DNA of 64,000 nucleotides from positions 1-64,000 of IMG/VR virus record IMGVR_UViG_3300001336_000003. The stretch is one strand, 5' to 3'. The notes beneath the pieces are model-generated. The model searched no databases and had not been told where the DNA came from. It saw only the letters and a program-made list of their open reading frames with translations. Below are positions 7,487-58,525 of the stretch, piece after piece (position 1 is the stretch's first letter; every line of letters begins with the position of its first letter). Source of the stretch: a virus (taxonomy: Duplodnaviria > Heunggongvirae > Uroviricota > Caudoviricetes). Made by a program: the position numbers and the translations under genes.

Positions 7487-7487
7487 A

Positions 7488-7964: not shown

Positions 7965-8256
7965 AAATATTAGACGAACCAGAAATTATTGCACCTGCAT
8001 CTGCCGAATCGCCTATTCTGGCAACTGGAATACCTGCTATGGTTACTTTTGACGAACCGCCATTTATGACTGCGCCGTGGGGGACACAGGATCTACCAAC
8101 TTTAATAGTGTGAACTTGTATTGCGTCACCTTGAACCGCTACTGGATTGCCGTTTACAGTAACCTTGCTTTGTAAAGAACCTTGTATGGTGGCAACAGAA
8201 GTGCATGGGTGCCCTGTTGCTATTTTATCAACTGTGCATACCGCTAATGCTGGCAT
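7951..8256 (-). CDS. 5.4: PAAR-repeat tail spike tip protein gp5.4-like
   Basis: 101 aa, Gly/Val-rich beta repeats (GHPCTSVAT, GDAIQVHT, GDSADAGAIISGSSNIFVG) typical of PAAR/gp5.4. Confidence 0.7.
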   Translation of the reverse strand: MPALAVCTVDKIATGHPCTSVATIQGSLQSKVTVNGNPVAVQGDAIQVHTIKVGRSCVPHGAVINGGSSKVTIAGIPVARIGDSADAGAIISGSSNIFVGA

Positions 8257-22854: not shown

Positions 22855-23136
22855 TTAAGCATTTTCATCTCTCGCTTCACTCACATAGAATACGGGTTCG
22901 TAGTCTACTTCGAAGCTATAATACGATACTTTTCCCGATTCGTCAATAGCAATAATACGGTCAGAAGAATTTTTCATCCATTCCCATCCGTCACAATTGC
23001 TATAAAGATGATCGCAATATTCTTTTAATTCGTAGTCCAACCAATCTGGTTCGCATACAATTTCCCAATCTGGTTCGAAATCATCGACATAATCACTTTC
23101 AAGACATACTTTATACTTCATTCCATATCCATCCAC
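22855..23136 (-). CDS. acidic hypothetical protein
   Basis: ORF track. Confidence 0.35.
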   Translation of the reverse strand: MDGYGMKYKVCLESDYVDDFEPDWEIVCEPDWLDYELKEYCDHLYSNCDGWEWMKNSSDRIIAIDESGKVSYYSFEVDYEPVFYVSEARDENA

Positions 23137-23678
23137 TTCACAAGTTCTTCATACTTTTCAGTTTTAGTCACGCTTTTAGCAATATGATCCAGAACCAAAG
23201 GACGCAAATCTTTACCGTCAAGAACAGAAAAGATGAAACGCGCATCTTGCTTATGAATCAAGTTAGGCACAAATTTAATAGCAACTTCTTTCTTGTCACC
23301 ACCATGCAGGGTTTTTGCAAGCAAAACCAAACCTTCAAGACGACCCAAGACATTATCCAAAGCAACTTTGAAACGGGTTTCATAGTCTTTTACAGTCTTG
23401 ACATCTTCTTCATCCAGAATAGGAATCAAATCATCCATTTCTTCGTTTACGATAATGTTAAGAATATGACGTTCAGTGCGAATCGCATCTTTCACCTTAT
23501 GTATCATCACGTATTGATCTGCTTTAATTTTAATTTTGTGTCCATCTGAAAAACTTATAATAAATCCTTCCGCGCCTTTAAGACTGCGTGTGTAATCAAT
23601 TAATATATTTACATTATCAAATGGTTCTATTACATCAACCACAGGAATGCGAAATTCTTTTATTTTTTCTAGTAGCAT
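23118..23678 (-). CDS. rnlA: RNA ligase 1 (RnlA) C-terminal half, separately translated
   Basis: EGFIISFSDGHKIKIKADQYVMIHK matches T4 Rnl1 [25 protein letters not shown]; own RBS tggagatgacctATG. Confidence 0.75.
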   Translation of the reverse strand: MLLEKIKEFRIPVVDVIEPFDNVNILIDYTRSLKGAEGFIISFSDGHKIKIKADQYVMIHKVKDAIRTERHILNIIVNEEMDDLIPILDEEDVKTVKDYETRFKVALDNVLGRLEGLVLLAKTLHGGDKKEVAIKFVPNLIHKQDARFIFSVLDGKDLRPLVLDHIAKSVTKTEKYEELVKWMDME

Positions 23679-23820: not shown

Positions 23821-24822
23821 ATGACTATTTATCAACCTTACTTTTATATAATTCAAGAAATATCTACTGGAATGTATTATGCTGGTGCGAAATGGGCGAA
23901 AGACGCAAATCCTAATGATTTTTTAACCCCAAATGGTTATCACACCTCTTCAAAATTAGTTAAATATCTAATCGAAAAAAACGGATTGCAATCATTTAAG
24001 ATTCGAAAAATAAAAACTTTTGCAAATATGTATGATACATATGAATATGAAACAAAATTTCTAAAAAAAGTAAACGCCAAAAGTAATTCTTGTTTCTTAA
24101 ATGGGCATGAAAATAATTGGGGTGTGACGGACAATACGAACATGGTTTCAGTAAAAAACAAAAGTGGTGAAAATTTTAAAGTTAGAGTAGATGACCCCAG
24201 ATACAGATCGGGAGAATTTTTCCACAACACCAAAGGAAAAGTTGTGGTAAAGGATGAAAATGGAAATACGTTTCAAATATGTGTTGATGATCCTAGATTC
24301 ATCACAAAAGAATTGCAACACGTTTCAAAAGGGACGACTGTCGCTTTGGATACCGTTACGGGCAAAGTTAAAAGAGTTTCCACAGATGATTTCAACCAAA
24401 CAAAAAATTTAGTCGGTATTTGTAACGGTTTCGTTCCTGTAATGGATACTTACGGGAACAAGTTCTCGGTTAATAGGGGTGACGTAAGATTTGAAACGGG
24501 TGAAATAAAGCATGTTACAAAAGGTAGGGTTACTGTAAAATCTACAGATGGTAAAACTATGAGTATATATACCACTGATCCGAGATATACATCTGGTGAA
24601 TTGGTTCACAATACTACTGGAATGGTAAGTGTGAAGGATAAACATGGCAATACAATGCAAGTTAGTAAAAAAGACCCAAGATACATTTCAGGCGAATTAG
24701 TCGGGGTTTCAAAAGGCATAAAAAGAACACCTCAAATAACAAAATGCCCGCATTGCAGCAAGAGCGGCGCTATGTCTCAAATGAAAAGATGGCATTTCGA
24801 AAATTGTAAGATGTTGCGGTAA
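23821..24822 (+). CDS. homing endonuclease-like protein with tandem about 22-aa repeats and C-terminal Cys finger, inserted inside rnlA
   Basis: IYQPYFYIIQEISTGMYYAGAKWA N-domain (paralog of 53328); 7-8 repeats of VxVKDxxGNTxxVxxDDPRYxSGELVH; C-terminal CPHCSKSGAMSQMKRWHFENCK. Confidence 0.6.
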   Translation: MTIYQPYFYIIQEISTGMYYAGAKWAKDANPNDFLTPNGYHTSSKLVKYLIEKNGLQSFKIRKIKTFANMYDTYEYETKFLKKVNAKSNSCFLNGHENNWGVTDNTNMVSVKNKSGENFKVRVDDPRYRSGEFFHNTKGKVVVKDENGNTFQICVDDPRFITKELQHVSKGTTVALDTVTGKVKRVSTDDFNQTKNLVGICNGFVPVMDTYGNKFSVNRGDVRFETGEIKHVTKGRVTVKSTDGKTMSIYTTDPRYTSGELVHNTTGMVSVKDKHGNTMQVSKKDPRYISGELVGVSKGIKRTPQITKCPHCSKSGAMSQMKRWHFENCKMLR

Positions 24823-24823
24823 A

Positions 24824-25414
24824 TTACCGCAACATCAAATACTTTCCAGTGATATTATGCCTAACCGAAAGAAGTGTCAATTGTTCCTCTTTATATGTAA
24901 TTACGATTTTGTTGTTTGGGCTGGTCCACTCGAAAATGGGGGTTAGTTGTTCACGTATACACCAAGCAGCAAAGTCCTTATATCTGGTATTTTTTTCAAT
25001 AAATTCTTCTGCTTGCATTGCCACTTCTGTGATGCCCATCTTAGTCATCCAACGAATTTCGCCATTGACCTTCATAGGATGTAGCATCGAACCATCTCGT
25101 TTTTCTTCTATAAAATGTGGTTTGGTCATGTCAATATTACGGATCAACGTTTCTTCTTTTTCATTGACATTAAACCATTTATGAAAGGGTCGTGCTGCAA
25201 TTTCGCCATTTGGTGAAAATTTTATGCCACGACATTCTCTTTTTATTGCGCCCTTGGTATCATCTGGTCCGCTCATATCAAATGTATCACTTGTTGCTAC
25301 CACATAATTGACAACAAAACCAAAGTCACGCTCTGCAATGATAAATTCATCACGACCAGCAATAGCAGGGCGCACATCATCAATGTGACGAATTTCGGGA
25401 AATTTGTATTTCAT
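24824..25414 (-). CDS. rnlA: RNA ligase 1 (RnlA) N-terminal half with KxDG adenylation motif
   Basis: [26 protein letters not shown] vs T4 [38 protein letters not shown] vs [40 protein letters not shown] vs [33 protein letters not shown]. Confidence 0.8.
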   Translation of the reverse strand: [196 protein letters not shown]

Positions 25415-30093: not shown

Positions 30094-30936
30094 TCATACA
30101 TACACCAATTCTGCTATGCTTTTTATAAGCTTGACTTCATCCATTGCACCATACCAACCACTAGTTGACATAGCGTTCAATTCCACGACTTTATATTGAT
30201 TTTCGCTAACTAGAGCAATGTCAATAACATACTCTGTTAAACCGTTAATGTCAAGATATTGAATCACCTTTTCAACAAATTTGTCCATTTTACCATCTGG
30301 TTTATGGTATTGGTGCTCATCATCCCAACCATAAGAAGATGAAGTCACTATTGTAGAATCGACAATCCAATAACGATATTCAGCTTCGATTTTCTGTGAT
30401 GGGAACACAACAACCAATTCGTGCGGTGCTACATGTTCAGTTTGTGTTAAAGCATTGACTTCGAATCTAATATCTTTTTTCTTGCAACTGAAACCAGTGA
30501 AAGGCTTCCATGCACTTATAGGTTTAACAAACATATCATTTGGAAGTTCTACCCAAGGTTTGTCCAAATCACCAAATCTATGTATCACGCCATGCCCATT
30601 CAAAATCAAATCAGAAGGTATAATAGTCGAATAATGGTTCCAATCAAAAATAGAATTCATCCCGATTTGTGGTTCGGGATGTCTGTTTGATATAATCAGA
30701 CCACTCGCCAATTCAGGGACGTTACTTTGTATGAATTTGGCCACTTGGATGGAACAGAACACAAAAGATTTGCCTTTAACATTCTTAGCAATTTCAGAAA
30801 TGTTTTCGCGCCATTTTGGATTATATCTTGCGGTGAAATAGATGACACGAACATTATCAATGTCATCTATCACATCTTTTTTGGCAACTTCCGCTTGTAT
30901 GATAACAGTGTGTTTCACTTCGTATCTCCCAAACAA
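30094..30936 (-). CDS. ATP-grasp-like protein (tentative)
   Basis: C-terminal YKVVELNAMSTSGWYG resembles ATP-grasp Mg-binding strand; weak. Confidence 0.3.
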   Translation of the reverse strand: MFGRYEVKHTVIIQAEVAKKDVIDDIDNVRVIYFTARYNPKWRENISEIAKNVKGKSFVFCSIQVAKFIQSNVPELASGLIISNRHPEPQIGMNSIFDWNHYSTIIPSDLILNGHGVIHRFGDLDKPWVELPNDMFVKPISAWKPFTGFSCKKKDIRFEVNALTQTEHVAPHELVVVFPSQKIEAEYRYWIVDSTIVTSSSYGWDDEHQYHKPDGKMDKFVEKVIQYLDINGLTEYVIDIALVSENQYKVVELNAMSTSGWYGAMDEVKLIKSIAELVYV

Positions 30937-33797: not shown

Positions 33798-34322
33798 TCA
33801 CCAAACCCGCAATTCTTCGATGTTTACGGGTGTATAATTGATCTGTTCAACACAAACGCACTTGTAAGGCCCTTCTGGTGAAGGGTTTTGATGAATATGG
33901 CCGAAAACATTAACCATCTGTTTATCATGTTCTTTGCCGCGCCACAAGGCATTTTCATGCAAAGGAACATGACTCATCAACAAGCCAAATTCAGGAAACA
34001 TGCGCCACATCATCACTTTCTTGAAGAAACCACCAGACGACAAAAACTTGATATCGTCATGATTTCCAACAATAAGACGCTTTGAACCTTGCAACTTAGG
34101 CCAATCTTTTTTAAACTTTTCTTTGTCGCCAAAGAATACATCACCTAAACAATAGTAGATATCACCAGGTTTAACTACAGAATTGTGCCTTTCAATTAAA
34201 CACTCGTTCATTTGATCTACGTTATCAAACTCGCGAATGTTGTTACCTTTATTATCAACAAATGATAATATATTAGAGTGATTATAATGCAAATCAGAAG
34301 AAACCCATATATTTTTAGTCAC
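33798..34322 (-). CDS. calcineurin-like metallophosphoesterase
   Basis: SDLHYNH, GDVFFGD, GNHD, GHIH motifs. Confidence 0.7.
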   Translation of the reverse strand: MTKNIWVSSDLHYNHSNILSFVDNKGNNIREFDNVDQMNECLIERHNSVVKPGDIYYCLGDVFFGDKEKFKKDWPKLQGSKRLIVGNHDDIKFLSSGGFFKKVMMWRMFPEFGLLMSHVPLHENALWRGKEHDKQMVNVFGHIHQNPSPEGPYKCVCVEQINYTPVNIEELRVW

Positions 34323-38972: not shown

Positions 38973-39135
38973 TCTTAGAGTGCTTCAAGTAAATCGTTAA
39001 TATCTTCTGGAAGCTTCCCATCGTGTTTTCCGAGTATGGAAGTACCTTCGACTGCTTTCAGCGACTTATTTCTTTCGTCATTTAGACGCCAAACATTTGC
39101 CATCCATTCTACATATTCTTTCGAGTGTGTATCCA

Positions 39136-39432
39136 TTAGTAACGCTCAACCGTAGAAGGAACATATTCTTGTTCTTTCAAAGCCGCACGATTACGGATTT
39201 CTTCAAAAGAATCATCTACAAGAAGTTCACCATCCCTGAAAACAGTGCGGAGAATATTACCTTTTTTCTCCGCAACTTCTTTAGGAACAGTGTGATATCC
39301 ACACGAACCGACACCACATTCGTATACCAACCCCAAACGACCTTTTTTGGAAATTTTTCCTTTGTCGGTAATAGGGTCTTTGAACACGTCATGCCACGTA
39401 CCTTCTGCATCTTGTCTTGCCGATGCTTTCAT
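39136..39432 (-). CDS. hypothetical protein behind late promoter + leader hairpin
   Basis: TATAAATA on minus at 39500..39507, 9-bp hairpin GGTGTGTCC/GGACACACC 39475..39497, RBS aaaggagg. Confidence 0.4.
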   Translation of the reverse strand: MKASARQDAEGTWHDVFKDPITDKGKISKKGRLGLVYECGVGSCGYHTVPKEVAEKKGNILRTVFRDGELLVDDSFEEIRNRAALKEQEYVPSTVERY

Positions 39433-39793
39433 AGCATAACGTAGCCATTGCTAAACCTCCTTTAGCTATTTTTAGGTGTGTCCTCACTGGACACACCCTT
39501 ATTTATACGTTATTATTCTTCGTCTACTAGCAGTTCGATAAGTTTTTCTGCGGCTATCGTCGCATCTTCTGCCATATTCATTGAAGAAAACCCCATAGTA
39601 TTAACGACCACCATAGAGGCATACGCGATGCCTAACATTTCATCAACGTCAATTTCATTATCTTCCAGCATAGTAAGGAATTCTTCCATCTTTTGTGCAG
39701 AAATTGTATTAATTTTTTTAACGCGAGAATCTACTTCATCCAATTCATTAATTTCATCATCGATATTCATTTCTTCGGTCATTTTATATCCTT

Positions 39794-40579
39794 TCACTTA
39801 TCGAAAATTACATTGACCCGATCTTCAAGGCTAAGATCGCCAAAATATCCCAAGTCAATTTCGTCTATTTTACTACGAATTACAGTTCTGTCAAGTGGTT
39901 TTTTACCATCTGGAATTTTATTCCAAACATCATCTGGCAGTTCTGTTTCGTAGTTCCTACGTTTCACATAAACACCATACTTCCACACGTTAGCAAGATC
40001 ATTCCAATCTTTACCTTCTTGAAGCATATATTCTTTCATCTGTTCACCACTAAGGTTTTCCATGGCCTTGTGACCACATGTCCAACGCATTATAGCAGAA
40101 ATACTATTTTTACGCGCATCTTGAACACGCCACAAAAGAACATTTGATGCTTCAATTTTGTTAGGAACGCCCCAAGACCGACAATCAAAATATGCCAGTT
40201 TATCGGTTTCGGCGTTTTCTTTCAGAAACTTGTTGAAGTTTGCTGTAGTCATAGAAGCAATGATGGAGTTGATTTTGGATGTTTTGCCACCAAAGATATG
40301 CTCGTTCTGCTTTTCACCCATACCATAGATAAGTGTGATTTCGTCTGATTGCGTATAACCGATATCAGCATTGGTAAGCTTTACAAGTTCTTTTGTGGTT
40401 TCCACCATTGTCTTTGTAAGACGATAATCGAAAGGCTTCACAAATCCCTTTGTAAATTTACTAAATCCTTTACCATCAATACGGACACATAGAATTTGTG
40501 AAGGCACAACGGTTTGTTTTGTAAACCGTCCTTCATAGTCTTTCATCCTATCGCCAAATTCATCGTTTTTCATCACCAA
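39794..40579 (-). CDS. Thg1-like protein (tRNA-His guanylyltransferase family 3'-5' nucleotidyltransferase)
   Basis: FGDRMKDYEGRF..ILCVRIDGKGFSKFTKGF..KPFD pattern and length about 260 aa. Confidence 0.75.
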   Translation of the reverse strand: MVMKNDEFGDRMKDYEGRFTKQTVVPSQILCVRIDGKGFSKFTKGFVKPFDYRLTKTMVETTKELVKLTNADIGYTQSDEITLIYGMGEKQNEHIFGGKTSKINSIIASMTTANFNKFLKENAETDKLAYFDCRSWGVPNKIEASNVLLWRVQDARKNSISAIMRWTCGHKAMENLSGEQMKEYMLQEGKDWNDLANVWKYGVYVKRRNYETELPDDVWNKIPDGKKPLDRTVIRSKIDEIDLGYFGDLSLEDRVNVIFDK

Positions 40580-40756
40580 ATCTCTTTTCTCATTCTTTCT
40601 GCTTCATCAATACCCCAACCTAGTGCAATACCGATGTAAAGAAACACAAAGCCGATTGCAACAAAAGGTAGAAAAATCAATCTGCGAATAATCAAATACC
40701 ACGGAAGTGCGTATTCAATATAACCTTCTGGATACTTATACCAACGCTTTTTCATA

Positions 40757-41242
40757 TTATCTAACCCCTGCCGCCTTATACAGTTCATTAACCCTTTCCT
40801 TGAAAAGTTTAGGGTTCCCTTGGCCTTTCGAAAACATCATTATTTCGTTGAAAGCCGTTTCTTCAGGAACTTGAAACCAATCCCAAAAACCATTCTTTTC
40901 AAAAAACTTGTAACATGATCTTACCCACACTTCTTCCATTGTAGATATGGCATGTCGCATTTTTTCGGTAGTTTCTGGTTTGTTGGGTTCGTATCTGGCA
41001 TAATCCCTCAAAAGAACCAGATACGAATCATCTTCAAAAGATTCGAAAGTCACACTTATGTGTTTTCTATTGACGTCTTTTGCTTCTATTCTAATCCAAA
41101 AACATTCTATATCATTTTGTGTTAGTGGTAAAGGAAAAAAACCTAGTTCTTTGGCTTTTTCCCGCATTTTTTCAAGGGTTTCACCCCTTCGATTAAAATG
41201 GCCAGAATCAAACTGTTCTATAATTTGGATAAGTTTATTCAT
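40757..41242 (-). CDS. hypothetical protein
   Basis: ORF track. Confidence 0.35.
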   Translation of the reverse strand: MNKLIQIIEQFDSGHFNRRGETLEKMREKAKELGFFPLPLTQNDIECFWIRIEAKDVNRKHISVTFESFEDDSYLVLLRDYARYEPNKPETTEKMRHAISTMEEVWVRSCYKFFEKNGFWDWFQVPEETAFNEIMMFSKGQGNPKLFKERVNELYKAAGVR

Positions 41243-41413
41243 CTAGGAGCCTCTTCAAGATAAGATGTTTCTGAAAGTCATTCCAACCATCTTTGATAGA
41301 TTTTCTGATATCAGGATCACGCGAGTCGCCAAATGCCTTATATGTTTGACTTAATGACATGCCTTGCTTTGACATTTCTGCACCAAATTTCCAAATTCTA
41401 AGGTTGTCATTCA

Positions 41414-41565
41414 TCACATTTTCATCTTTTTGTGTTGCATTTCTGGAAAGTTAACTTCCAAAGTGTTCACATCAATATCACAATAACTAAGCTCGTTCAA
41501 GCAAATAAACCTAGTCCCATCAATGACTTCATCTGCATTGCTGTGCCAATGGCCAAAGATAGATT
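41414..41565 (-). pseudogene. diverged duplicate of the 3' end of the metallophosphoesterase gene (remnant downstream of the endonuclease insertion)
   Basis: QSIFGHWHSNADEVIDGTRFICLNELSYCDIDVNTLEVNFPE vs 42203..42883 C-terminus HVFGHWHNDADRIIDGTRFICLDELSYVDIDTETLEVKWPD. Confidence 0.65.
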
Positions 41566-41568
41566 GTT

Positions 41569-41595
41569 TATAAATAAGTATGGTTCGCGGATTTC
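41569..41595 (+). promoter_or_regulatory. homing-endonuclease cassette leader (TATAAATA..GGTTCGCGG hairpin ATCCCAACCATTCTAG..AAAGGAGTTCCAGC; extends into remnant ORF)
   Basis: same motif order as other cassettes. Confidence 0.6.
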
Positions 41596-42237
41596 TTGGC
41601 AGGCATCCCAACCATTCTAGAAACACAAAGGAGTTCCAGCATGCATTATTTATATGTAAAAACACATAATAAAACGGGTTTAAAATATTTAGGAAAGACA
41701 AAATCTAAAGATCCATTTAAATATAGGGGTTCAGGAAAATACTGGAAACGGCATATTAATAAGCACGGTTATGATGTCACAACTCAAATATTACTTGTTA
41801 CTGAAAACAAAGAAGAATTAAAGCAAACTGGCCTATTCTTTAGTAAATTATGGAATATAGTAAAATCACGAGAATGGGCAAATTTGAAATTGGAAAATGG
41901 CGATGGGGGTTGGGATCATATAATATTAAAGGGTAGAACTTTTTCAGATGAAACTAAAAGAAAAATGTCAATATCTGCTATCGTAAGACAAACTGGTGAA
42001 ACAAATTCATTTTACGGAAAAACACATTCTGATGAAACTAGAAAATTGATTGGAGAACATAGTAAAGAAAGAGGTAAAGAGCAATATACAAAAAGAATAA
42101 ATAATGGCACTCATCCTAACAACAAAAGTGTATGCCCTCATTGCAATAAAATTGGACAATATAGAGCAATGAAAAGATGGCATTTTGATAATTGTAAATT
42201 ACTTAACTCTTTGGTTGTCTTCCATCAGGCCACTTAA
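41596..42237 (+). CDS. free-standing homing endonuclease-like (YxGSG-type N-domain, NUMOD3-like units, C-terminal Cys finger)
   Basis: MHYLYVKTHNKTGLKYLGKTKSKDPFKYRGSGKYWKRHINKHGYD close paralog of 10556; GKTHSDETRKLI unit; CPHCNKIGQYRAMKRWHFDNCK. Confidence 0.65.
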   Translation: MAGIPTILETQRSSSMHYLYVKTHNKTGLKYLGKTKSKDPFKYRGSGKYWKRHINKHGYDVTTQILLVTENKEELKQTGLFFSKLWNIVKSREWANLKLENGDGGWDHIILKGRTFSDETKRKMSISAIVRQTGETNSFYGKTHSDETRKLIGEHSKERGKEQYTKRINNGTHPNNKSVCPHCNKIGQYRAMKRWHFDNCKLLNSLVVFHQAT

Positions 42238-42883
42238 CTTCTAGTGTTTCCGTATCGATATCTACATAACTCAGTTCATCTAGGCAAATAAATCTTGTTC
42301 CATCGATGATACGATCAGCATCATTGTGCCAATGACCAAATACGTGCAGTTTAGGCTTGTGAATTTCAAGCATAGCTTCCAATGCCATGCCAGTTCTGGT
42401 CTTATATTGCTTGTTCGAAAACGATTTCCCATTTTCGATGAAAAGCTTGTTTGAAACAGACAGGGGACAATCATGTGTCACCATAATCGAAGGCGCGACC
42501 AATGTATATACATCAATCAAGCGTTCTAGTTCTTCATACGAAAGTTCTTCATCATCCCAAATGTCAATGCCTTTGGTTCGCCATTGATAATCAATAGACC
42601 ACGCACCACCAACATACATGATGTCATTTTCCACCACGCCATCTGGAATCCATGTTTTCATGGTTTTACACATGGATGGATTGTCATGATTGCCGCGAAT
42701 GAAACGTCCATTGACTTTTTGCATCATATCATCAAGCGATTCATGCCAATAGTCGCCTTGCCCAAAACCAATACCCATATCGCCCACTTGAACGACAGAA
42801 GTAACATCTTGTGGAATGTTATCCAAAAGAATGCTCAGTTCGTATTTTAGACCATGAACGTCACCAATAAATCTAGTTTTCAT
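42203..42883 (-). CDS. calcineurin-like metallophosphoesterase (candidate polynucleotide phosphatase)
   Basis: GDVHG, GDMG, GNHD, GHWH motifs. Confidence 0.7.
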   Translation of the reverse strand: MKTRFIGDVHGLKYELSILLDNIPQDVTSVVQVGDMGIGFGQGDYWHESLDDMMQKVNGRFIRGNHDNPSMCKTMKTWIPDGVVENDIMYVGGAWSIDYQWRTKGIDIWDDEELSYEELERLIDVYTLVAPSIMVTHDCPLSVSNKLFIENGKSFSNKQYKTRTGMALEAMLEIHKPKLHVFGHWHNDADRIIDGTRFICLDELSYVDIDTETLEVKWPDGRQPKS

Positions 42884-43389
42884 AGTTCTTTTCCATAAAT
42901 GTCATATTTTCTAATCGCGTCAAAACCTTCATCTAGTGCAGGTTCGACATATGAATTAACCATAGACTTGATAACATGATCAGGAATAGTTTTGCCTTTA
43001 CGGCTTTGCAAACGACGATTCCATTCTGTAATATCTTCTACGGTTTCGGGAGGTGTGAAGACAATTGCCTCAACCCTGTATCCAAATTTTTTCATTTTTT
43101 CAATGATAGAACGGCGCTTTTTTACACCGAGATTTGTCTGATCCCAATACACGTCAACTTTCATTTTAATGGCTTCTGCAAGCCAAATGTCAGATTCCAA
43201 CTTGGCAGGACCAATGTGTTTATCAAAAACTTCATCGTAAGTCTTGTCAAGTTGTTTGGCAACACGTTCAAGAACATTGTCTGTGCTATAGACAAACACA
43301 GTGTCAGCAAACTCAGGATCTTCAACAAAATTTAAAAGAGTGGACTTCCCACTCGCAGGAAGTCCGACAAGAACAAAACAAGTAGGCAT
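42880..43389 (-). CDS. P-loop polynucleotide kinase-like protein (Pnk kinase-domain-like)
   Basis: VLVGLPASGKST Walker A; size 169 aa; adjacent to phosphoesterase. Confidence 0.55.
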   Translation of the reverse strand: MPTCFVLVGLPASGKSTLLNFVEDPEFADTVFVYSTDNVLERVAKQLDKTYDEVFDKHIGPAKLESDIWLAEAIKMKVDVYWDQTNLGVKKRRSIIEKMKKFGYRVEAIVFTPPETVEDITEWNRRLQSRKGKTIPDHVIKSMVNSYVEPALDEGFDAIRKYDIYGKEL

Positions 43390-43688
43390 ACTTAACCTTT
43401 CATATACACATTTTTCAAATAGGTTCCGACACCTTTTTCAACAAATTCTTTGGTGTAGTGAACTTCTCCATTCGGTTTTTCGATGACAAGTTCATAGGTA
43501 ACAGAAAAATATTTGGATGGAGGGGTTACACGATAATCAACTACAAGACCTTCTTCAATCGGGTAATAGGCACCCCAATTCATAATGACTTCGGTTCCGA
43601 TTGCGACAGAAGTGATATTTTCGGCAGTGATTTTCATAGCGAACCTCTTTTGATTACTCTTATAATATAAGTGATCGATTCGCCTATG

Positions 43689-44324
43689 TCAAGCGTTTTT
43701 TGTATCTATTATAGCTTGTGCCATGCGAATTGTGAGATCGATGCCTTCTTGAACCATGTAGAAGAACAGTTTTTCTTCTTCGTTCACGTTCAAAATGTTG
43801 ATAGCCATTCTTGCATGAAGGCCAGACATAAATTGAATGTTGGATGCAGCAAAATCTTGAATGTTGCAATCGTATAGTGCCATTGATTCATTCATGATTT
43901 TTGTGAAGTTATTAACAGTATCTACCTTTGATGTAAGAGCATGTAGATCGGCACGAATGATAGCAGAATAATTTTTTGGTAAGTTTCTTGTTTCTAGCAG
44001 ATGTGTTTCTGTTGCCATAATAAGACCAGATACTTTACTCACATCCCACAAACTTAAATTACAGCCCCTATAATTATCTTTCATTTCACTAAAAGCAAGT
44101 GAGGAACGCCATTCTTTTTTAGGTTCTGCATCATACACCACATCATGAAACATGACTGCCCAATCAAGGGATTCGTCATACGGTTCATCGGTTTCTTCAA
44201 GATACTGATACATAGCTTCAATATGCGAATTGTTGTGATATTGACAACCTCTGATTTCATTCTCGTTCATTAGAACGTAGGCTTCGGTTGCCAATTCAGT
44301 TTTTTGTATTTTAGACCAATTCAT
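43689..44324 (-). CDS. HD-domain phosphohydrolase-like protein
   Basis: H..H (YHNNSH) and FHDVVYD motifs. Confidence 0.45.
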   Translation of the reverse strand: MNWSKIQKTELATEAYVLMNENEIRGCQYHNNSHIEAMYQYLEETDEPYDESLDWAVMFHDVVYDAEPKKEWRSSLAFSEMKDNYRGCNLSLWDVSKVSGLIMATETHLLETRNLPKNYSAIIRADLHALTSKVDTVNNFTKIMNESMALYDCNIQDFAASNIQFMSGLHARMAINILNVNEEEKLFFYMVQEGIDLTIRMAQAIIDTKNA

Positions 44325-45172
44325 CGCCCATCACCATAGATTGCCCATTCACCAAATTCGCCATAGTAGTTATCTTTAATACGACATTGCTTAATTGACA
44401 TATTATGATTTTCAACCATATCTGTTGAAATGACTTGTTCAACCATTTCACATTCTTCCAACATTTGGATCTGAATAATAGGCGGTCCCATACCAACTAA
44501 CAAAACAGGAAAAAATGAAATCAAAAACAATGGCAACACATTAATTGGTCTATTTTTACCATATGTTAGCAGGATAAAGGGCAATGCCATAATCAGAGAC
44601 ATTACAACAACATAAGGTAAAATCCATAGGGTGTTCATTAAAGGAACACCCCCTAGAATCCAAAAGAAAAATTCAGAAAGAGTTAGGATTGTTTCTCTAA
44701 ACATGACTGTCACCAACTTGACTGGTAGTAGAACATCCATCCACGGAAATCTGTTTCCATACGAGGAACCACATTTTCTAGAACTTCAACAGTATATTTG
44801 ATACCGTCAAAATACCACTCATCATATTCAGTCCCACCAAAGAAAAATCCGCTTCGTGTTGGAAGTAGTGTTTCCACTTGATCTGGATTAGCCAAAACAG
44901 ATTTACAGATATTCAAAAGGTTTCTCAGATTTTCGTGTGTCACATAGCTTTTTTGACATTCATCCACGCCATCTTGAACGTTTTGAACAAACCAATCGTG
45001 GATAGCATTTGCTTTACGCCAATATGCAATTTCTACTTCTACTTGCTTTACACGTTTGTCACCAATTTCAGGAAAAAGTTTGCCAATTGCATTAGCAACT
45101 TCTTTGTCGTTATTGTCACCAAAATCCCACAAATAGCGTTCTGCGGTAAGATACATATCAAGTCCCATAATA

Positions 45173-46139: not shown

Positions 46140-46212
46140 TATAAATATAAGTGCCAGTCGCGGTTGCCGCCAAGAAACCCACTGACTCTATGTTTAGTAA
46201 CCCAAAGAGAGG
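46140..46212 (+). promoter_or_regulatory. homing-endonuclease cassette leader
   Basis: TATAAATATAAGTGCCAGTCGCGGTTGCCGCCAAGAAACCCACTGACTCTATG...GAGGAACACAGCAC ATG. Confidence 0.65.
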
Positions 46213-47089
46213 AACACAGCACATGTATATTTATCTGATACGCAATATCATCAATGACAAGATTTATATTGGTCAAACTACAAAAACACCCGAAAAAAGA
46301 TTTAGGCAGCATGTATACACAAGTAAAAGACTAAAGACACAACTATATAACTCTATGAACAAATACGGCGAAGAAAATTTCATAGTAGAAGTTCTGGAAG
46401 TTGTTCAGGACAAGAGCCTTCTAGACCCAAGGGAAATATATTGGATAGCGGAACTGGAGCCAGAGTATAACATGACTATAGGTGGCCAAAGAAGTAGTAC
46501 CACAGAAAAATACACGGAAGAGCGTAAACGCGAAAGATCGGCAAAAAGTTCCGCTTCCATAAAAAAGATGTGGGATTCCATGAGTGAAGATGAACGCAAA
46601 GAACGCATGAAAAAAACCCACGCAAAAACAGATTACAAATCACATTCTGATAAACTTTCGGTTTCTAGAAGAAGATTTTTTACGAATGAAACTGAAGAGC
46701 AGAAAGCAATTAGAATAGAAAAAGCTAAAATAGGTGCCAAGAAAACAGAAAAAATCAAATGTCATTATTGTGATCAGGAAATTGGTGGTGGTAAATATAA
46801 TCTAGTAAAACACGAAGAAGTATGCTCAAAAAATCCATCATCAAAAAATTTTGGGAAAAGCACAAAAAAGAAACAACCTTATAGCTATACAATACTAGAT
46901 CCAAACAATACAAAGCATATAACATCATCATTTAAGGGATTTTGCAAAACACACAATCTTTCAAGATATTTGCTTATGAAAAATATTGGAAGTGTAGTTG
47001 AAAGCGTTGACGCTAAAACTAATAACGCCAACGCAACAACAATAAATACCTTTGGGTGGTGTTTACTTAGGATTGATGATCTGACTTAG
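46151..47089 (+). CDS. GIY-YIG homing endonuclease with NUMOD3-like repeats and C-terminal Cys finger
   Basis: YIYLIRNIINDKIYIGQT..RFRQH..LYNSMNKYG..NFIVEVLE..REIYWIAELEPEYN is the canonical GIY-YIG domain; TEERKRERSAKSS/ERKERMKKTHAKT units; CHYCDQEIGGGKYNLVKHEEVC. Confidence 0.85.
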   Translation: MPVAVAAKKPTDSMFSNPKRGTQHMYIYLIRNIINDKIYIGQTTKTPEKRFRQHVYTSKRLKTQLYNSMNKYGEENFIVEVLEVVQDKSLLDPREIYWIAELEPEYNMTIGGQRSSTTEKYTEERKRERSAKSSASIKKMWDSMSEDERKERMKKTHAKTDYKSHSDKLSVSRRRFFTNETEEQKAIRIEKAKIGAKKTEKIKCHYCDQEIGGGKYNLVKHEEVCSKNPSSKNFGKSTKKKQPYSYTILDPNNTKHITSSFKGFCKTHNLSRYLLMKNIGSVVESVDAKTNNANATTINTFGWCLLRIDDLT

Positions 47090-47678
47090 AGATGGTAGAC
47101 TGTTTCTTTTTTAGTATTTTACCCCTATTTTTTAGTCGCTTTATTACTTCATTACCGTCCATCCACATGTCCACCCCATCAATAACACGATCTATTTCAT
47201 CTAAAGTCAGAAACCCTTCATAGATAGACCGCATAAAACTTGTAGACCATTTTCGTTCAAACAGAGCCTGCGAATGAATCTCATTGCCCTTCCCTAGAAA
47301 TCCTCCATTATATGTATGCACCATGAACATGGAATATTCCGACACCTCAAAGTTATCACCTTGAAGGAAGATCATTGTTGCAGCCGAAGCACACATCCCC
47401 TCAACGGAAGTTATCACTGTTGCTTCAGTCTCATTCAAGGCCCTAAGTAATTGAATAGTCGTGTCAATGTTTCCACCACCAGAGTTGATATATATTTTGA
47501 TGATGTCTGTTTGACTACAATGACGTATCGTCTGGAACCATTCAATGTAATTTTCTGGACTGTCTATCTCACCTGACAAATAGAATTCATGAAGATTTGC
47601 AATTGGTCTAGAGTATATTCTTTCATCTTGCTTTGCGCCGCCGCCGAACAACTCCATCAAATCAATTTTTTTGGGCAT
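47067..47678 (-). CDS. ClpP-like serine protease (S14 family)
   Basis: INSGGGNI and GMCASAATMIFL blocks typical of ClpP. Confidence 0.65.
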   Translation of the reverse strand: MPKKIDLMELFGGGAKQDERIYSRPIANLHEFYLSGEIDSPENYIEWFQTIRHCSQTDIIKIYINSGGGNIDTTIQLLRALNETEATVITSVEGMCASAATMIFLQGDNFEVSEYSMFMVHTYNGGFLGKGNEIHSQALFERKWSTSFMRSIYEGFLTLDEIDRVIDGVDMWMDGNEVIKRLKNRGKILKKKQSTISKSDHQS

Positions 47679-48156
47679 AATTTTTCCTTCTTGTTATTTC
47701 CAATAGTCTTTAGGCATATTGGTCCAAGGTGTAGACCAATAAATTACGAAGTAGTATAAATTTAACTGTGCGTGTGGGCAGTCATACCAGAATTTATGTA
47801 GACCGATTGTTTGCAATCCCCAAATTTTACGAATATAGGTGTCGTTATCAAATTCACTGTAAGCACCACGCATTTCTTTATCCATTAGGCCAATTTTGAA
47901 GTAGTAAAAATATCGGTTCGTGCCAAGCGTCTTTTCAGACTGTCCCCATTCAATGCCTTCACGGCATAATTTAAATTTCCAAGGATATTGTTTCACTTCT
48001 TGTTCATCTTTTCTAAATATAATTCATATGCGGAATCACATGCGTCACATGGTTTCCCATCTACTGTTCCATGACCACCGTTACAAGTGTTGTTCCGACA
48101 TTTACCGCAAATTACAACTTCGTGTTCGCACAGATCACAGTATACCCATTTATGAT

Positions 48157-48597
48157 TCATCTAAACATCCTTGTAATATCATCACGAATTGACATAAGAA
48201 TTTTTCCTAATTCGTTTTTACCTTTACCTAATGGGGATTGCCCCCAAAAAGTATCGCCCCATGTGTTTCCTTCAATAAGTTCACAACCTTTGGTAGCCAT
48301 AAGTTTTTCCATCAATTCTGGATTTTGATCAAACTTCGCGCTGACTACACTTCGCATAACAGGTAATTTCGTATCTTCCCAATAAGGTTTCAGGTTGATT
48401 TCCGAACCTAATCTTTTAGCTTGGCCAGCACTAATACCACCATAAGCAAAATGATTCCACACATCTTCATTAATGCTTTTCATAGCTTGGTAAGCATGTT
48501 CAGCAGTAGGCCATTTGTAGCCCATGTATGCAAATTCCGATGGATGAAAATTTGACAAGAAACGATATTCACCTGAAAATGACGTTATTTGAGCCAT
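48157..48597 (-). CDS. NADAR (YbiA-like) domain protein
   Basis: FLSNFHPSEF...WPTAEHAYQAMK...ELGKILMSIR match NADAR signature. Confidence 0.7.
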   Translation of the reverse strand: MAQITSFSGEYRFLSNFHPSEFAYMGYKWPTAEHAYQAMKSINEDVWNHFAYGGISAGQAKRLGSEINLKPYWEDTKLPVMRSVVSAKFDQNPELMEKLMATKGCELIEGNTWGDTFWGQSPLGKGKNELGKILMSIRDDITRMFR

Positions 48598-49004
48598 GCT
48601 ATCCTTTTACCTTCTTTCACACGTCTTTCATGTTCTTCTTCGGAACTTGGATATCTCCAACCCCATATAGCAACAAGAGTCATAAAGATTCCTAAGTAAG
48701 CAATAGCAATCAAATTTCCAGTTGTAAACCACATAATACCCAAAGAAATCAACATTGTCAAGACCATTAAATACTTAGCTTTTTGGGGAAAGATTCTTTT
48801 TTCTTGCCATCCAATAAGGAATGGGCCAAAAATTTTATGTGAATATAACCAATTGTGCATACGATCACTGGACTTGGCAAAACAATATGCAGCGCCAACA
48901 GCGGGTGTGCTCCAAGGAATCCCAGGCAATATTAGGCCCAAATATGCTATGCCTATTAGAATGACTCCTAAACTGAACCAAAGTGCTTTTTTAACATTAA
49001 TCAT
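48585..49004 (-). CDS. DUF454/YbaN-family inner membrane protein
   Basis: LILPGIPWSTP motif and 4 TM segments. Confidence 0.55.
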   Translation of the reverse strand: MINVKKALWFSLGVILIGIAYLGLILPGIPWSTPAVGAAYCFAKSSDRMHNWLYSHKIFGPFLIGWQEKRIFPQKAKYLMVLTMLISLGIMWFTTGNLIAIAYLGIFMTLVAIWGWRYPSSEEEHERRVKEGKRIAWLK

Positions 49005-49229
49005 GTTTTTCCTTTCTGCAATATTGACACTGTATATGGGTCTTCATATCTCGCATACTAAAAACATGACCGTATGTATGTTTACTTAAAATGCACAAAA
49101 TCCATCCTTTGAAAAAACGATAATATCCTTTCAGACCACCGCCATGTGCTTGAGTGGAAAGCGGTATGTTGATCCAATGACCACCATACCGCACAAAGAT
49201 TTTGCCTTTTTTCAACAGAATTGGAAATT

Positions 49230-50033
49230 TCATGTCCAGAGACTGCCGCGAATTTTGATAAGACGGATCAGCATTTGTGTATCTTCTTCTTCATATGCCT
49301 TTTCCATTTCACGCATCTTGTCAAGCATTGGTCCAGTATCAACACCATCATCTTTTTCAAAAATGTCAAAAATGCCATCACTCTTACTATCACAATAAGC
49401 AGACCATCCACTAACTTCCATTGGTTCTGGACGGTTTGGATATACTTCTGTCCACCACTTGTAAAGCTCAATGATTTCTTTGGCAGTTTCTGCTTGTACT
49501 GTAGGTTTGGCTTCATGCTTTTTATCTTCTTCAAGCCATTCTTCATCTGTTAATGTCATTTCCCATTCCAAATGATTTAGACCTGCTTCCGCACTACGCC
49601 AAGTTCTGGTGCGCCAACGCCCAACTTGCCACCACTTCATACCTTTTTGCTTTTCTTCAGACCAACGATAATTGCTATACGCCTTTTCAATTTCGACAAA
49701 ATCGACAAGCTCATCAAAAAGACATATCAAAATGCGACAATCAAGATCGCGCCATTGACCACGCTTGATATGCTTTGGGTGTGCAACAAGCGCGTGACTT
49801 TGATCAATCCAACGATTTACGATGTAGTATTTGATATTGTATAGCTTATCAATTGGCCAATTCAAGAATTTTTGAATTTTATCAAAGCCTTCTTCTGCAA
49901 TCCAATACCGAATTGGATGTTTTCGTTTGGCTTCTGCATCCCATGCTTTCCAATCTTTGCCAGACAAAGCATATGGTTTTTCAGACCCACGAATTTTGTC
50001 AGCAAATTTACTACACGACCAATAGTTTGTCAT
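49230..50033 (-). CDS. Trp-rich hypothetical protein
   Basis: ORF track. Confidence 0.35.
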   Translation of the reverse strand: MTNYWSCSKFADKIRGSEKPYALSGKDWKAWDAEAKRKHPIRYWIAEEGFDKIQKFLNWPIDKLYNIKYYIVNRWIDQSHALVAHPKHIKRGQWRDLDCRILICLFDELVDFVEIEKAYSNYRWSEEKQKGMKWWQVGRWRTRTWRSAEAGLNHLEWEMTLTDEEWLEEDKKHEAKPTVQAETAKEIIELYKWWTEVYPNRPEPMEVSGWSAYCDSKSDGIFDIFEKDDGVDTGPMLDKMREMEKAYEEEDTQMLIRLIKIRGSLWT

Positions 50034-50375
50034 TTTTTATCCATTCTTTCATCACGAAAAATCTTAACATCTTTAATAGCAGACTTCAAAGATTCTGCAT
50101 AGTTCAATGTTGTCTGTTCATTCATAACAATGGTGCTTTGCATTTCGGCGTATCCTTTAGTCAATATTTGCCAAATCTGCTTCCAACGGTTTTTATGCCA
50201 CCACTTGGTAGTTACAGTAACATATGTGTGAACTTGAACATTCATATCATCGGCTTCAATATCAACTTCATGTGAACACGTGTCATTACCACATTCGCAT
50301 CTGATATGATACCACATCGAATTACCATAGTCACCAACTTTTAATACGCCTTCTGCTGGTTTTTGTGCTTTCATT

Positions 50376-50834
50376 TTAATACCTCTTTACAGGAAAATTA
50401 GCTTTTTCGGAAATTTGACACATATGTGAAGTGCCAACGCCACCCTTGAATGCTATAACCAAGTCTGGATTTTCTTCAGTTAACATTTGCTGATTTCTGA
50501 TAGGCCCCGCCGCCTTTTTGTGTTTATCCCAATCGGCTGGATAAGGTCTACATTCAACATTGTTTACTTCAGCCCATTTCTTGGCCCAAGAATCTGCGCC
50601 AACTGCTTCGCCTTGAATTATAATAAGGTTACGTTCAAGTTCTTCTACAGACATTTTCAGCACGTCAAGCTTATCGAACAAAAACTTAACTTCTTGCTGA
50701 TTTATGACTTTTTGTCTGTTTGCATTGACAGTCCAACCATAGTCGCGACCACCACACACAATAACCTTAAAATCAAGTTTTTGCATGTTGTTCATTCTTT
50801 TCTGCTTGTGCTTGCATTTTCTTATAGAATTCAA
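50376..50834 (-). CDS. SLOG-fold DUF2493-like protein
   Basis: KVIVCGGRDYG ... IIQGEAVGADSWAKKWA ... KAAGPIRNQQML. Confidence 0.45.
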   Translation of the reverse strand: MNSIRKCKHKQKRMNNMQKLDFKVIVCGGRDYGWTVNANRQKVINQQEVKFLFDKLDVLKMSVEELERNLIIIQGEAVGADSWAKKWAEVNNVECRPYPADWDKHKKAAGPIRNQQMLTEENPDLVIAFKGGVGTSHMCQISEKANFPVKRY

Positions 50835-56857: not shown

Positions 56858-58525
56858 CTAAACTGCCATAGGTGCTTTAATTGTTGGGTGGCACTGATAA
56901 TTTTTAAGTGTAAACATATTTACCGTATTAAAATTGAATCCGTATGTCAAACCTTTAGACAAAACAAAGTCTTCTGATATTTCTAATGTTGGTAGAGGAT
57001 ATTCTTTTCTCGTAAGTTGTTCCCGAACCTGTTCAATATGATTATTATATATGTGTGCATCACCTATGGAATATACGAGTTCACCAACTTGCATATTAAC
57101 TTCTCTAGCCAAAATATGAATAAGAAGTGCATATGAAGCAATGTTGAAAGGCGCACCCAAAAATGCGTCATTTGATCTCATTGTTAACATCCCGCTTAAT
57201 TTGTTCTCTCTGACAATAAGTTGAAAGAAACAGTGGCATGGTGGTAGTGCTTGCATATCTATAACCGTAGGATTCCATGCTGACAATATGATTCTTCTTG
57301 ATTCGGGTTCGTTTTTTATTTGGTTTATTATATTTACGATTTGGTCGGCCACCACCTTTTTACGAAATACATGTCCATTAGAAGCTTGAATATATTTTAG
57401 ACTATACCCATTATAACTTTCACCTGTGTCTAACAAATAAGAAATCCTCGCCAGTGTCAAATCATCTATGCTATTGCATATGTCTGTTTTATACAGATAG
57501 TCTTTGTATGTATCATAGTGGAAAACTCTTATTTTTCTATGATGGTCTACTTGTTTATTGGCTATTGCCAAGTTCATCTTTTTTGGTAGAAATATGCAAG
57601 TGTGTTTAGAATAGATGTCAGAGCAATAGTAATCTTTATCCAATTCGTAGTCATTATTCATCTTAACCCATTCATAAAATCCTGGGATTTTATCTATGTC
57701 TAGTAAAAAATTCTTAAAATCCATCCAACTATCAGAAACACGAACACCCCTAGCCCCATAATTTCTATAACTTAGATGTTTTTTATTATAGCATCTATCT
57801 ATCATATGAATCCATAGTTTATATGCTTTCTTATAGTAAGATGGTTTATCACCTCTGAATGAATTGTTTGCCACCCCCTTAATCAAAGGGTTGAGGCAAA
57901 TCTTCTTAGGTATATTACTTCCTAAAATTTTAGTCAATTCACCCGTATCTAGTGCTTGCGCTATGTAAGTTTTTCGATATTTGTCGTTGCTGCACAGACC
58001 TAATATTTTAATGGGTCTACCAGATTTAGATGTAAATCTATAGCCCGTATATTTGTGTCCATCGCCGTAGTCTGCAAATTCAATAACTTCTTTAGCCGTA
58101 TCTATCGTTTCTTTGCGTTCTGGAACTTCTGTAATTTGTTCGCTGGCAGAATACCAATTTCTCCACATACTGCCATACACAGGACCAAGAAGCCCTATAG
58201 ATTCGATAGAATCATACCCTAAATTTTTTCCTTGGTGTATTAGATTATCTGTCCATATCGTTTGTTTACCTACCAATTCCTCACGGGGTTTGCCATATGT
58301 CAATTCAGCAAGTCGTCTTTCATCTGTGCCGCCTTCAAGAAACCATAACAATTCACCCACAACAGATTTCCATGCGAGTTTCTTTGTGGTGACGGCTGGA
58401 AACCCATCGTTCAAATCAAATCGCATCTGATAACCAAAAACAGAACGTGTTCCAACACCAGTTCTATCTTCAACATCAACACCATTTTCCAAGACGTGTC
58501 TAATCAAATCATGATATTGTTGCAT
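56858..58525 (-). CDS. td: thymidylate synthase ThyA carrying an in-frame about 265-aa insertion that contains an HNH-endonuclease motif
   Basis: N-terminus DRTGVGTRSVFGYQMRFDL..FPAVTTKK..LLWFL..LGPVYGSMWRNW and C-terminus SRRIILSAWNP..ALPPCH.FFQ..RSNDAFLGAPFNIASYALL..GDAHIY match ThyA; middle has KLWIHMIDRCYNKKHLSYRNYGARGVRVSDSWMDFKNF (phage HNH family). Confidence 0.85.
   Translation of the reverse strand: MQQYHDLIRHVLENGVDVEDRTGVGTRSVFGYQMRFDLNDGFPAVTTKKLAWKSVVGELLWFLEGGTDERRLAELTYGKPREELVGKQTIWTDNLIHQGKNLGYDSIESIGLLGPVYGSMWRNWYSASEQITEVPERKETIDTAKEVIEFADYGDGHKYTGYRFTSKSGRPIKILGLCSNDKYRKTYIAQALDTGELTKILGSNIPKKICLNPLIKGVANNSFRGDKPSYYKKAYKLWIHMIDRCYNKKHLSYRNYGARGVRVSDSWMDFKNFLLDIDKIPGFYEWVKMNNDYELDKDYYCSDIYSKHTCIFLPKKMNLAIANKQVDHHRKIRVFHYDTYKDYLYKTDICNSIDDLTLARISYLLDTGESYNGYSLKYIQASNGHVFRKKVVADQIVNIINQIKNEPESRRIILSAWNPTVIDMQALPPCHCFFQLIVRENKLSGMLTMRSNDAFLGAPFNIASYALLIHILAREVNMQVGELVYSIGDAHIYNNHIEQVREQLTRKEYPLPTLEISEDFVLSKGLTYGFNFNTVNMFTLKNYQCHPTIKAPMAV

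Follow-up and report, generated by a model that had tools for sequence, protein, structure and literature searches.

Thg1-like proteins (TLPs) act on 5'-monophosphorylated RNA with a recessed 5' end in a duplex; a tRNA that is short of acceptor-stem 5' nucleotides is the known substrate. ATP or GTP activates the 5'-phosphate to give App- or Gpp-RNA, nucleotides are added in the 3'-5' direction by Watson-Crick pairing with a template, which is the 3' strand of the stem, and pyrophosphate is removed (PMC4820378, PMC6471195). The sole established physiological function of a TLP is the 5'-editing of mitochondrial tRNAs in protists (PMC6471195). Described here is a phage gene for a predicted TLP, a putative templated 3'-5' RNA nucleotidyltransferase, found at 39794..40573 on the minus strand of a 64,000-nucleotide stretch of the IMG/VR virus record IMGVR_UViG_3300001336_000003; this whole stretch is termed the window.

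A TLP in a phage is nothing new in kind. As early as 2013 the Thg1 homologue of phage Bc431v3 was pointed out as an unusual gene (PMC3601020), and homologues of the window protein occur in 164 GenBank phage records from many host groups, none of them above 42% identity. As a genome feature the TLP is therefore expected rather than surprising, being annotated in more than 160 phage genomes. The PHROG 4717 genes, e.g. phiN3 gp1, Bc431v3 gp143, fHe-Yen9-04 g142 and that of D148, represent the same protein family; phiN3, a T4-superfamily phage with a capsid protein 64% identical to that of the window, already has an annotated Thg1 gene, although its product is only 31% identical. The RNA-repair reading has essentially been published as well. 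Iyer et al. (2021) consider Thg1 a sporadic, 5'-nucleotide-restoring component of jumbo-phage RNA repair, in a set that also includes PTH2, 2H, calcineurin-like and HD phosphoesterases, RlaP and CCA-adding enzymes (PMC7824862). New here are a divergent, abundant and uncultured T4-type clade that carries a TLP, and a kinase-only Pnk-like partner followed by a metallophosphoesterase, which replaces the kinase-HAD fusion of T4.

An initial annotation of this DNA had read positions 39794..40579 as Thg1-like and had named a profile search beforehand as the test by which that reading could fall. The search places the open reading frame (ORF) in the Thg1 family, with 107.5 bits to Pfam PF04446 (cut-off 29.2, E 6e-31, profile positions 2-129 of 130) and 234 bits to PHROG 4717 'tRNA-His guanylyltransferase'. 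The top match in the PDB is the Bacillus thuringiensis Thg1-like protein (BtTLP, 4kgk) at E 2.5e-34 over residues 6-212; TLP and Thg1 chains are matched from this value to 6e-4, and the eukaryotic Thg1 chains score more weakly, at E 1e-9 to 1e-10 (5xox, 1.7e-10; Candida 3wbz, 2e-9). The phage protein has the motif W-R-x-Q-D-A-x-K-N-S-I-S, where eukaryotic Thg1 has D-x-H-I-N-N-L-Y-N; at this place it reads D-A-R-K-N-S-I-S, BtTLP D-A-S-K-N-S-I-S and Thg1 D-C-H-I-N-N-L-Y-N. The HINNLYN-type motif is one that we take to separate eukaryotic Thg1, with its non-templated G-1 addition, from TLPs, with their templated 5'-end repair, in function. Because the BtTLP-like D-A-x-K-N-S-I-S motif stands in place of the eukaryotic one, the protein falls into the TLP class, and 39794..40573 is, as judged from its sequence, a bona fide Thg1-family enzyme of bacterial TLP type.

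Is the active site intact? BtTLP residues E12, R28, D30, K43, S74, D75, E76, R131 and R147 are important by mutation or structure: D30 and D75 are metal carboxylates, E76 is a third carboxylate, K43 and S74 take part in activation, and R28, R131 and R147 bind the nucleoside triphosphate (NTP). D29, D76 and E77 of human THG1 (hTHG1) are equivalent to D30, D75 and E76, and two of the three bind catalytic metals (PMC3701042). The phage protein was aligned with BtTLP and 120 database homologues of 55-98% identity. In the same order and with the numbering of the 259-amino-acid form, its residues E14, R31, D33, K46, S76, D77, E78, R132 and R149 are identical to those of BtTLP and invariant in 120 of 120 homologues. 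The three conserved carboxylates (D33, D77, E78), the Lys/Ser pair of 5'-end activation (K46, S76) and the NTP-binding Arg/Glu residues (R31, R132, R149, E14) are all present.

BtTLP (4kgk/4kgm) is the nearest solved relative, sharing the catalytic carboxylates, the activation Lys/Ser, the triphosphate-binding Arg and the D-A-x-K-N-S-I-S motif, but the two proteins also differ in sequence. Substitutions are numerous across the roughly 205 residues that align, BtTLP His35 and Met158 are replaced by Ser and Ala, respectively, in the phage clade, and the C-terminal 50 or so residues of the phage protein, with clade-specific conserved R, G and R, lie beyond the aligned part. BtTLP is chromosomal, whereas the window TLP is phage-encoded. 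A cut-off of E <= 1e-10 yields 794 relatives, of which the closest have 83-98% identity; many are on phage-size contigs of 100-275 kb, several of these on contigs of 140-275 kb. The protein's own clade (55-98% identity) is found in metagenome contigs only. A search of IMG/VR with the TLP gave only matches of 38% identity or less, and a megablast search with 39000..44400 found no near-identical DNA among GenBank phages. The homologue alignment shows purifying conservation of the TLP, and the gene is almost certainly one for an active enzyme, as the residues kept in it indicate.

The minus-strand ORF 39794..40579 is unbroken and gives 261 amino acids when counted from TTG at 40579, so that the extent first annotated holds for the ORF but not for the start of the gene. 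The actual start is likely the ATG at 40573, for a gene at 39794..40573 and a protein of 259 amino acids. This start is preferred because it overlaps the upstream stop and because metagenome gene callers gave an identical 259-amino-acid product on two other, independent contigs. The start region reads ...TGG TGA TG AAA..., with the stop of the upstream ORF at 40575..40573 and the TLP ATG from 40573 (TGATG overlap). The upstream ORF (40573..40788, minus strand) encodes 71 residues, is hydrophobic, and is 86-100% conserved in the same place in the related metagenome loci L022-L025; the two genes are apparently translationally coupled. Directly downstream of the TLP gene is an ORF for a highly acidic protein of 94 amino acids (39513..39797, minus strand), whose start overlaps the last TLP codons by 4 nucleotides. 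It is kept at the same position in L022-L026 and L032 and has no family match. Sigma-70-like promoter matches are at chance level (24 versus 19.2 +/- 5.4), as are terminators (5 versus 3.8 +/- 1.5), and operon signals were not used.

What are the neighbours of TLP genes in unrelated phages? Ten GenBank TLP lineages were sampled with 10 kb of flank on either side, a comparison that is descriptive and carries no statistical test. Vibrio phage D148 (OZ196545.1 69492..82118) has a CCA-type nucleotidyltransferase (PolyA_pol head), RlaP, TLP, Rnl1, Pnk and a homologue of MPE2, the second metallophosphoesterase of the window, all within about 11.5 kb. The D148 Pnk is T4-type (AAA_33 + HAD_PNKP), and the MPE2 homologue is beside it. 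In Mycobacteriophage Pound, a T4-type Pnk with HAD_PNKP is 0.6 kb downstream of the TLP gene; in the Yersinia jumbo phage fHe-Yen9-04, RlaP is 3 kb downstream. Roseophage DSS3_MAL1 has an MPE2-like phosphoesterase directly downstream of the TLP gene, followed at +6 kb by a homologue of MPE1 (the metallophosphoesterase beside the window kinase) and at +8.5 kb by a CCA-adding enzyme. The recurrent co-location of TLPs with RNA-end-specific enzymes in unrelated phages favours an RNA-repair role. When a hidden Markov model of the window kinase was compared with TLP-flanking ORFs of other lineages, the Pnk of Pound (E 5e-5) was the only match outside the window's clade.

With a probability of roughly 0.6, the phage TLP performs tRNA or RNA 5'-end repair in a counter-defence or RNA-maintenance role. 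It would restore 5'-truncated tRNAs, or other recessed RNA 5' ends, during infection: ATP or GTP would activate the 5'-phosphate, templated nucleotidyl transfer would follow, and pyrophosphate would then be removed. The enzyme would be one arm of an RNA-repair and counter-defence set that includes Rnl1 and a Pnk-like kinase. A 5'-OH end made by a nuclease cannot enter the activation step, which makes a 5'-kinase a logical partner of the TLP, as it is of Rnl1; the kinase would turn such ends into the 5'-phosphate that both TLP and Rnl1 need. More speculatively, MPE1, MPE2 or a 211-amino-acid putative phosphohydrolase might clean 3' ends, e.g. 2',3'-cyclic or 3'-phosphates. We infer tRNA as the substrate, as well as the partnership with the kinase and the phosphoesterases and the counter-defence purpose.

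The kinase, at 42880..43389 (minus strand), is a stand-alone P-loop protein of 169 amino acids that resembles polynucleotide and tRNA kinases. It matches AAA_33 with 52.5 bits and, at 8e-10, phrog_505 'polynucleotide kinase', where the match falls on the N-terminal kinase half. A 31-sequence profile of it matched, in order, archaeal O-phosphoseryl-tRNA kinase (PSTK, 1.3e-7), a Rhizopus kinase (6.6e-7), mammalian PNKP (4e-6), an uncharacterised fungal P-loop protein (1.1e-5), T4 Pnk (4e-5) and Capnocytophaga Pnkp1 (8e-5) in the PDB. The AlphaFold2 (AF2) model has a predicted local distance difference test score (pLDDT) of 90.5, and a Foldseek search with it places the mammalian PNKP kinase domain first (2e-9), with the kinase of CthPnkp, the Clostridium thermocellum enzyme, at a template-modelling (TM) score of 0.70 and a root-mean-square deviation of 3.2 A, and T4 Pnk at 0.67. 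Invariant are the Walker A motif G9-x4-G14-K15-S16, D37 (the Asp after strand 2) and R126-x3-R130, a kinase-motif match that is not specific to Pnk, as PSTK, PFK-2 and zeta toxin score as well. The fused C-terminal HAD 3'-phosphatase domain (PF25109) is absent, the 169 residues being the kinase domain only, whereas the D148 and Pound Pnk proteins carry a HAD phosphatase domain. 'Pnk-like' is a reasonable label by profile and predicted fold; because the HAD domain is missing, the protein is not a T4-type Pnk.

MPE1, a calcineurin-type metallophosphoesterase of 226 amino acids (42203..42883, minus strand), has a start that overlaps the last codons of the kinase by 4 nucleotides. It matches Metallophos with 35.3 bits and phrog_1649 with 115 bits, and has the complete calcineurin-type set of invariant metal-ligand motifs (GD-x-HG, GD, GNHD, H137 and GHWH). 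A single-sequence search of the PDB gave no match; the AF2 model (pLDDT 89) resembles Dbr1 (1e-8), LpxH, Rv0805 and GpdQ. A specific assignment as a Pnkp-type or RNA end-healing phosphatase was considered and rejected, since the profile gave a local Dbr1 match of 39 residues and the fold search was generic. Directly behind MPE1 is a GIY-YIG/NUMOD3 homing-endonuclease ORF (41596..42237, plus strand), and beyond it a 95-amino-acid ORF (41414..41701, minus strand) contains a second version, 63% identical, of the final 48 residues of MPE1. The arrangement resembles the trace of a homing event in which a foreign copy of the 3' end of the gene came in. An identical MPE1 (P0241) is encoded on a 99-kb contig. 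The 211-amino-acid putative phosphohydrolase (43689..44324, minus strand) has an H...HD...D pattern and matches phrog_19425 'phosphohydrolase' at E 1.2e-8; it has no Pfam or NCBIfam match.

The T4 pathway and bacterial Pnkp are the described systems to which this set can be compared. With the T4 Pnk + Rnl1 pathway the window shares an Rnl1 homologue and a kinase that is like T4 Pnk (profile E 4e-5; TM 0.67, 24% identity), and presumably the logic of healing broken tRNA ends. It differs in that a separate metallophosphoesterase after the kinase stands in place of a fused HAD 3'-phosphatase, in that Rnl1 is split, and in that the TLP would add a step that restores nucleotides at the 5' end, one missing from T4. 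The likeness to bacterial Pnkp of C. thermocellum (Pnkp/Hen1 RNA repair) consists of a PNK-like P-loop module followed by a calcineurin-type metallophosphoesterase module, together with the fold match to the CthPnkp kinase. However, Pnkp is one polypeptide and the modules here are two separate genes, no ligase-like adenylyltransferase module adjoins the kinase-MPE1 pair, and the equivalog model TIGR04075 gives only 16 bits (cut-off 750). Nor does MPE1 have specific similarity to Pnkp or to the lambda-phosphatase branch, and its adjacency to the kinase is not kept in relatives.

Five relatives of the clade (L024, L027, L029, L032 and L033), with TLPs 56-83% identical to that of the window, were examined over flanks of 10 kb on either side. 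Homologues of the kinase and of the 211-amino-acid phosphohydrolase are found 2-4 kb upstream of the TLP gene in four of the five (L024, L029, L032 and L033); L027 has only a faint AAA_33 protein, downstream of the TLP gene. Kinase and MPE1 are separated by an R2K ATP-grasp gene in L032 and L033 (5970..6788 and 7335..8153, respectively) and by three small ORFs in L029. In the window the R2K-clade gene is at 30094..30936 (minus strand), beside DNA ligase, and it is this rearrangement that accounts for the kinase-MPE1 adjacency. MPE2 homologues are 5-8 kb downstream of the TLP gene in 17 of 21 IMG/VR loci, which are mutually related; in L032 and L033 the distance is about 7 kb, again downstream.

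Several observations weigh against the repair reading. The substrate and role of the phage enzyme are extrapolated from cellular TLPs because no assay of a phage TLP is in the literature searched; the full texts hold genome descriptions and a jumbo-phage survey but no experimental study of a phage Thg1 or TLP. To our knowledge, no defence nuclease of bacteria has been described that shortens tRNAs at the 5' end. The 64-kb window is devoid of tRNA genes, as are the 10 kb on either side of the TLP gene in 10 of 11 related loci, the single locus that has them being that of a jumbo phage. PFK-2 and zeta-toxin kinases are interleaved among the Foldseek matches of the window kinase. Neither MPE1 nor MPE2 can be tied to RNA ends, both appearing generic in sequence, and MPE1, although in the upstream block in three of the four relatives that keep the kinase, is gone from near the TLP gene in the closest one, L024. 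Five of the ten sampled GenBank lineages (phiN3, Bc431v3, Aeromonas 2L372D, BcepSaruman and Fnu1) have no recognisable RNA-repair neighbour within the flanks, and in Caulobacter phage CcrColossus the sole neighbour of that type is a homologue of the window's weak PTH2-like protein (30% identity, E 1e-13), 1.3 kb downstream. In the relatives, moreover, NatV and nicotinamide phosphoribosyltransferase (NAMPT) are directly downstream of the TLP gene, with NADAR and YAcAr in the block. As the relatives in the clade are akin, its gene order may be inherited synteny in a variable early-gene region that harbours conflict genes of nicotinamide adenine dinucleotide (NAD) and ADP-ribose.

That setting bears on the next possibility. 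Could the TLP act on a substrate other than tRNA, e.g. small RNAs, mRNA 5' ends or primers, or perform nucleotide chemistry of the GGDEF/Cas10 kind, next to genes that act on nucleotide, NAD or ADP-ribose signals? The Thg1 palm has been unified with the GGDEF and Cas10 cyclase domains (PMC12657218), and RNA recognition by TLPs is broader than that of Thg1 (PMC6471195). The neighbourhood includes NADAR, YAcAr and a NAMPT remnant; relatives have NatV and NAMPT there, Acb1 is encoded in another part of the window, and the cyclic-nucleotide phosphodiesterase Rv0805 is among the structural neighbours of MPE1. Yet all BtTLP residues for 5'-end activation and templated transfer are conserved, the neighbours of the TLP gene in four unrelated lineages of phages include RNA-end-specific enzymes (Pnk, Rnl1, RlaP or a CCA-type nucleotidyltransferase), and the top profile matches of the kinase are all nucleic-acid or tRNA kinases. 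A non-tRNA role is thus unlikely; the NAD/ADP-ribose setting keeps the idea alive for the neighbouring genes, and less so for the TLP itself.

Maturation of tRNA-His, whereby the enzyme would add G-1 opposite C73 to phage or host tRNA-His for charging in infection, is suggested by the family itself, which is defined by G-1 addition and bears the database name 'tRNA-His guanylyltransferase'. Many TLP phages are rich in tRNA genes, e.g. Bc431v3 with 20, for which the gene was proposed to modify tRNAs (PMC3601020), and DdiTLP2 adds a templated G-1 opposite C73 (PMC6471195). The phage sequence, however, is nearest to BtTLP, the primary function of which has been described as 5'-end repair and not G-1 addition (PMC3701042). 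It also has no HINNLYN-type motif of the eukaryotic kind, and no gene for tRNA-His or any other tRNA is in the window or near the gene in the relatives examined. Bacterial tRNA-His normally has a genome-encoded G-1, which makes G-1 addition redundant and counts further against this role, for which the odds appear rather poor. A passenger gene, dispensable in a hypervariable early-gene region, is highly improbable. The region is indeed a mosaic with homing endonucleases, deleted NAMPT and NatV and a split Rnl1, and TLPs are sporadically distributed among phages (PMC7824862), but the frame is intact, the active site is kept in 120 relatives down to 55% identity, the gene is at the same position in relatives whose TLPs are 56-83% identical, and its start is coupled to the upstream gene. 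Repair of 5' ends remains the preferred reading.

The other genes that the initial annotation had assembled into a wider RNA-repair kit fared unevenly. Its split Rnl1 was confirmed. The N-terminal fragment (24824..25414, minus strand) is the nucleotidyltransferase domain with motif I K-R-D-G (PF09511, 86.7 bits, positions 1-152 of 227; TIGR02308 positions 51-190), and the C-terminal fragment (23118..23678, minus strand) has motifs IV and V and the T4 Rnl1 C-terminal domain (PF20819, T4_Rnl1_C, 31 bits; TIGR02308 positions 216-341). The break falls between nucleotidyltransferase motifs IIIa and IV, and the halves are about 1.15 kb apart, with an opposite-strand HNH homing-endonuclease ORF between them (23821..24822, plus strand; phrog_12434 'HNH endonuclease', 110 bits). 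The K-x-D-G lysine domain and the Rnl1-specific C-terminal domain are both there, but not in a single continuous coding sequence; Rfam searches at gathering thresholds, bearing on a group I intron in Rnl1 or in the thymidylate synthase gene (td), found no family anywhere in the window. The split gene may be a two-subunit ligase or a pseudogene.

The Pnk-like P-loop kinase beside a metallophosphoesterase at 42203..43389 was likewise found as described, and so was the second phosphoesterase at 33798..34322 (minus strand). This is MPE2, of 174 amino acids, with 152 bits to phrog_547 and, as its sole PDB match, an uncharacterised Aquifex hypothetical protein (1xm7, E 7e-7). The PTH2-like protein of 147 amino acids (5169..5612, minus strand) passes the Pfam cut-off but is weak: PF01981 gives 25.7 bits (cut-off 23) over positions 3-47 of 115 only, less than half of the profile, NCBIfam Pth2 gives 17.5 bits against a cut-off of 126, and a PDB sequence search gave no match. 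The protein at 7488..7964 (minus strand) does have the 2H phosphoesterase fold that had been proposed. As an RNA-repair enzyme it was rejected, since its best match is Acb1, an anti-CBASS cyclic-nucleotide phosphodiesterase (PF23474, 48.3 bits, cut-off 27, positions 4-138 of 144), against 17.8 bits for the generic 2',5'-RNA-ligase profile. Both H-x-T/S motifs (H-T-T and H-I-S) are present in the alignment to Acb1 7t26. The idea of a wider kit therefore keeps Rnl1, the Pnk-like kinase and the context in unrelated phages; it loses strength through the generic metallophosphoesterases, the interrupted Rnl1, Acb1 and the adjacency that is not kept in relatives. 'T4-like', too, is apt in a broad sense but not as a statement of close kinship.

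The major capsid protein of the window is gp23-type, with 538 bits to phrog_138, and shares 64% identity with proteins of Sinorhizobium phages phiM12, phiM7 and phiN3, Methylophilales phage Melnitz, Stenotrophomonas phage DLP6 and cyanophages. RNase H, Dda helicase, DNA ligase, NrdA (nrd), thymidylate synthase (td), DHFR (frd) and PhoH are other T4-type genes present. By these genes the window is assigned to a distant T4-superfamily myovirus, not a close kin of T4. At 39136..39432 (minus strand) only the C-terminal 98 amino acids of NAMPT are left, whereas L024, L029 and L033 have complete NatV (NMNAT-Nudix) and NAMPT between TLP and Dda helicase; the NAD-salvage pair has therefore been deleted in this phage, and the deletion junction is the same on the independent contig L023. 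Upstream of the kinase block is a conflict-type cluster (47067..50834, minus strand) with a ClpP-like protease (47067..47678), NADAR (48157..48597), DUF454 (48585..49004) and a YAcAr SLOG protein (50376..50834), all on the minus strand; the same set is upstream of the TLP gene in L024, L032 and L033.

The window is also rich in homing-endonuclease-like ORFs, with at least six: 3509..4888, 8792..9514, 23821..24822, 41596..42237, 46151..47089 and a block within td. The thymidylate synthase ORF (56858..58525, minus strand) has 555 amino acids, with an in-frame HNH-endonuclease block at about residues 158-396 between thymidylate synthase segments; an intein is one possible explanation, insertion of an endonuclease in frame another. 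PhoH (9752..10312, minus strand) matches just 150 of the 205 positions in its profile, and the NUMOD3 homing-endonuclease ORF at 8792..9514 comes after it; here, too, an endonuclease may have truncated or split a gene.

What might the TLP mean for these phages? The repair island of D148, a cultured phage, would make a good experimental system for phage TLP function. It is conceivable, but doubtful, that a large uncultured aquatic clade of T4-type phages keeps a dedicated tRNA 5'-end repair module, consisting of a stand-alone Pnk-like kinase, one or two phosphoesterases and the TLP. If so, the hosts would possess defence nucleases or toxins of a class not yet known, by which the 5' acceptor-stem nucleotides of tRNAs are removed or damaged, a lesion beyond repair by classical Pnk + Rnl1 sealing. 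Is 3'-5' polymerization a form of counter-defence, and against which tRNA lesion is it directed? The TLP beside a Pnk-like kinase and islands of the D148 type offer concrete candidates with which to ask.

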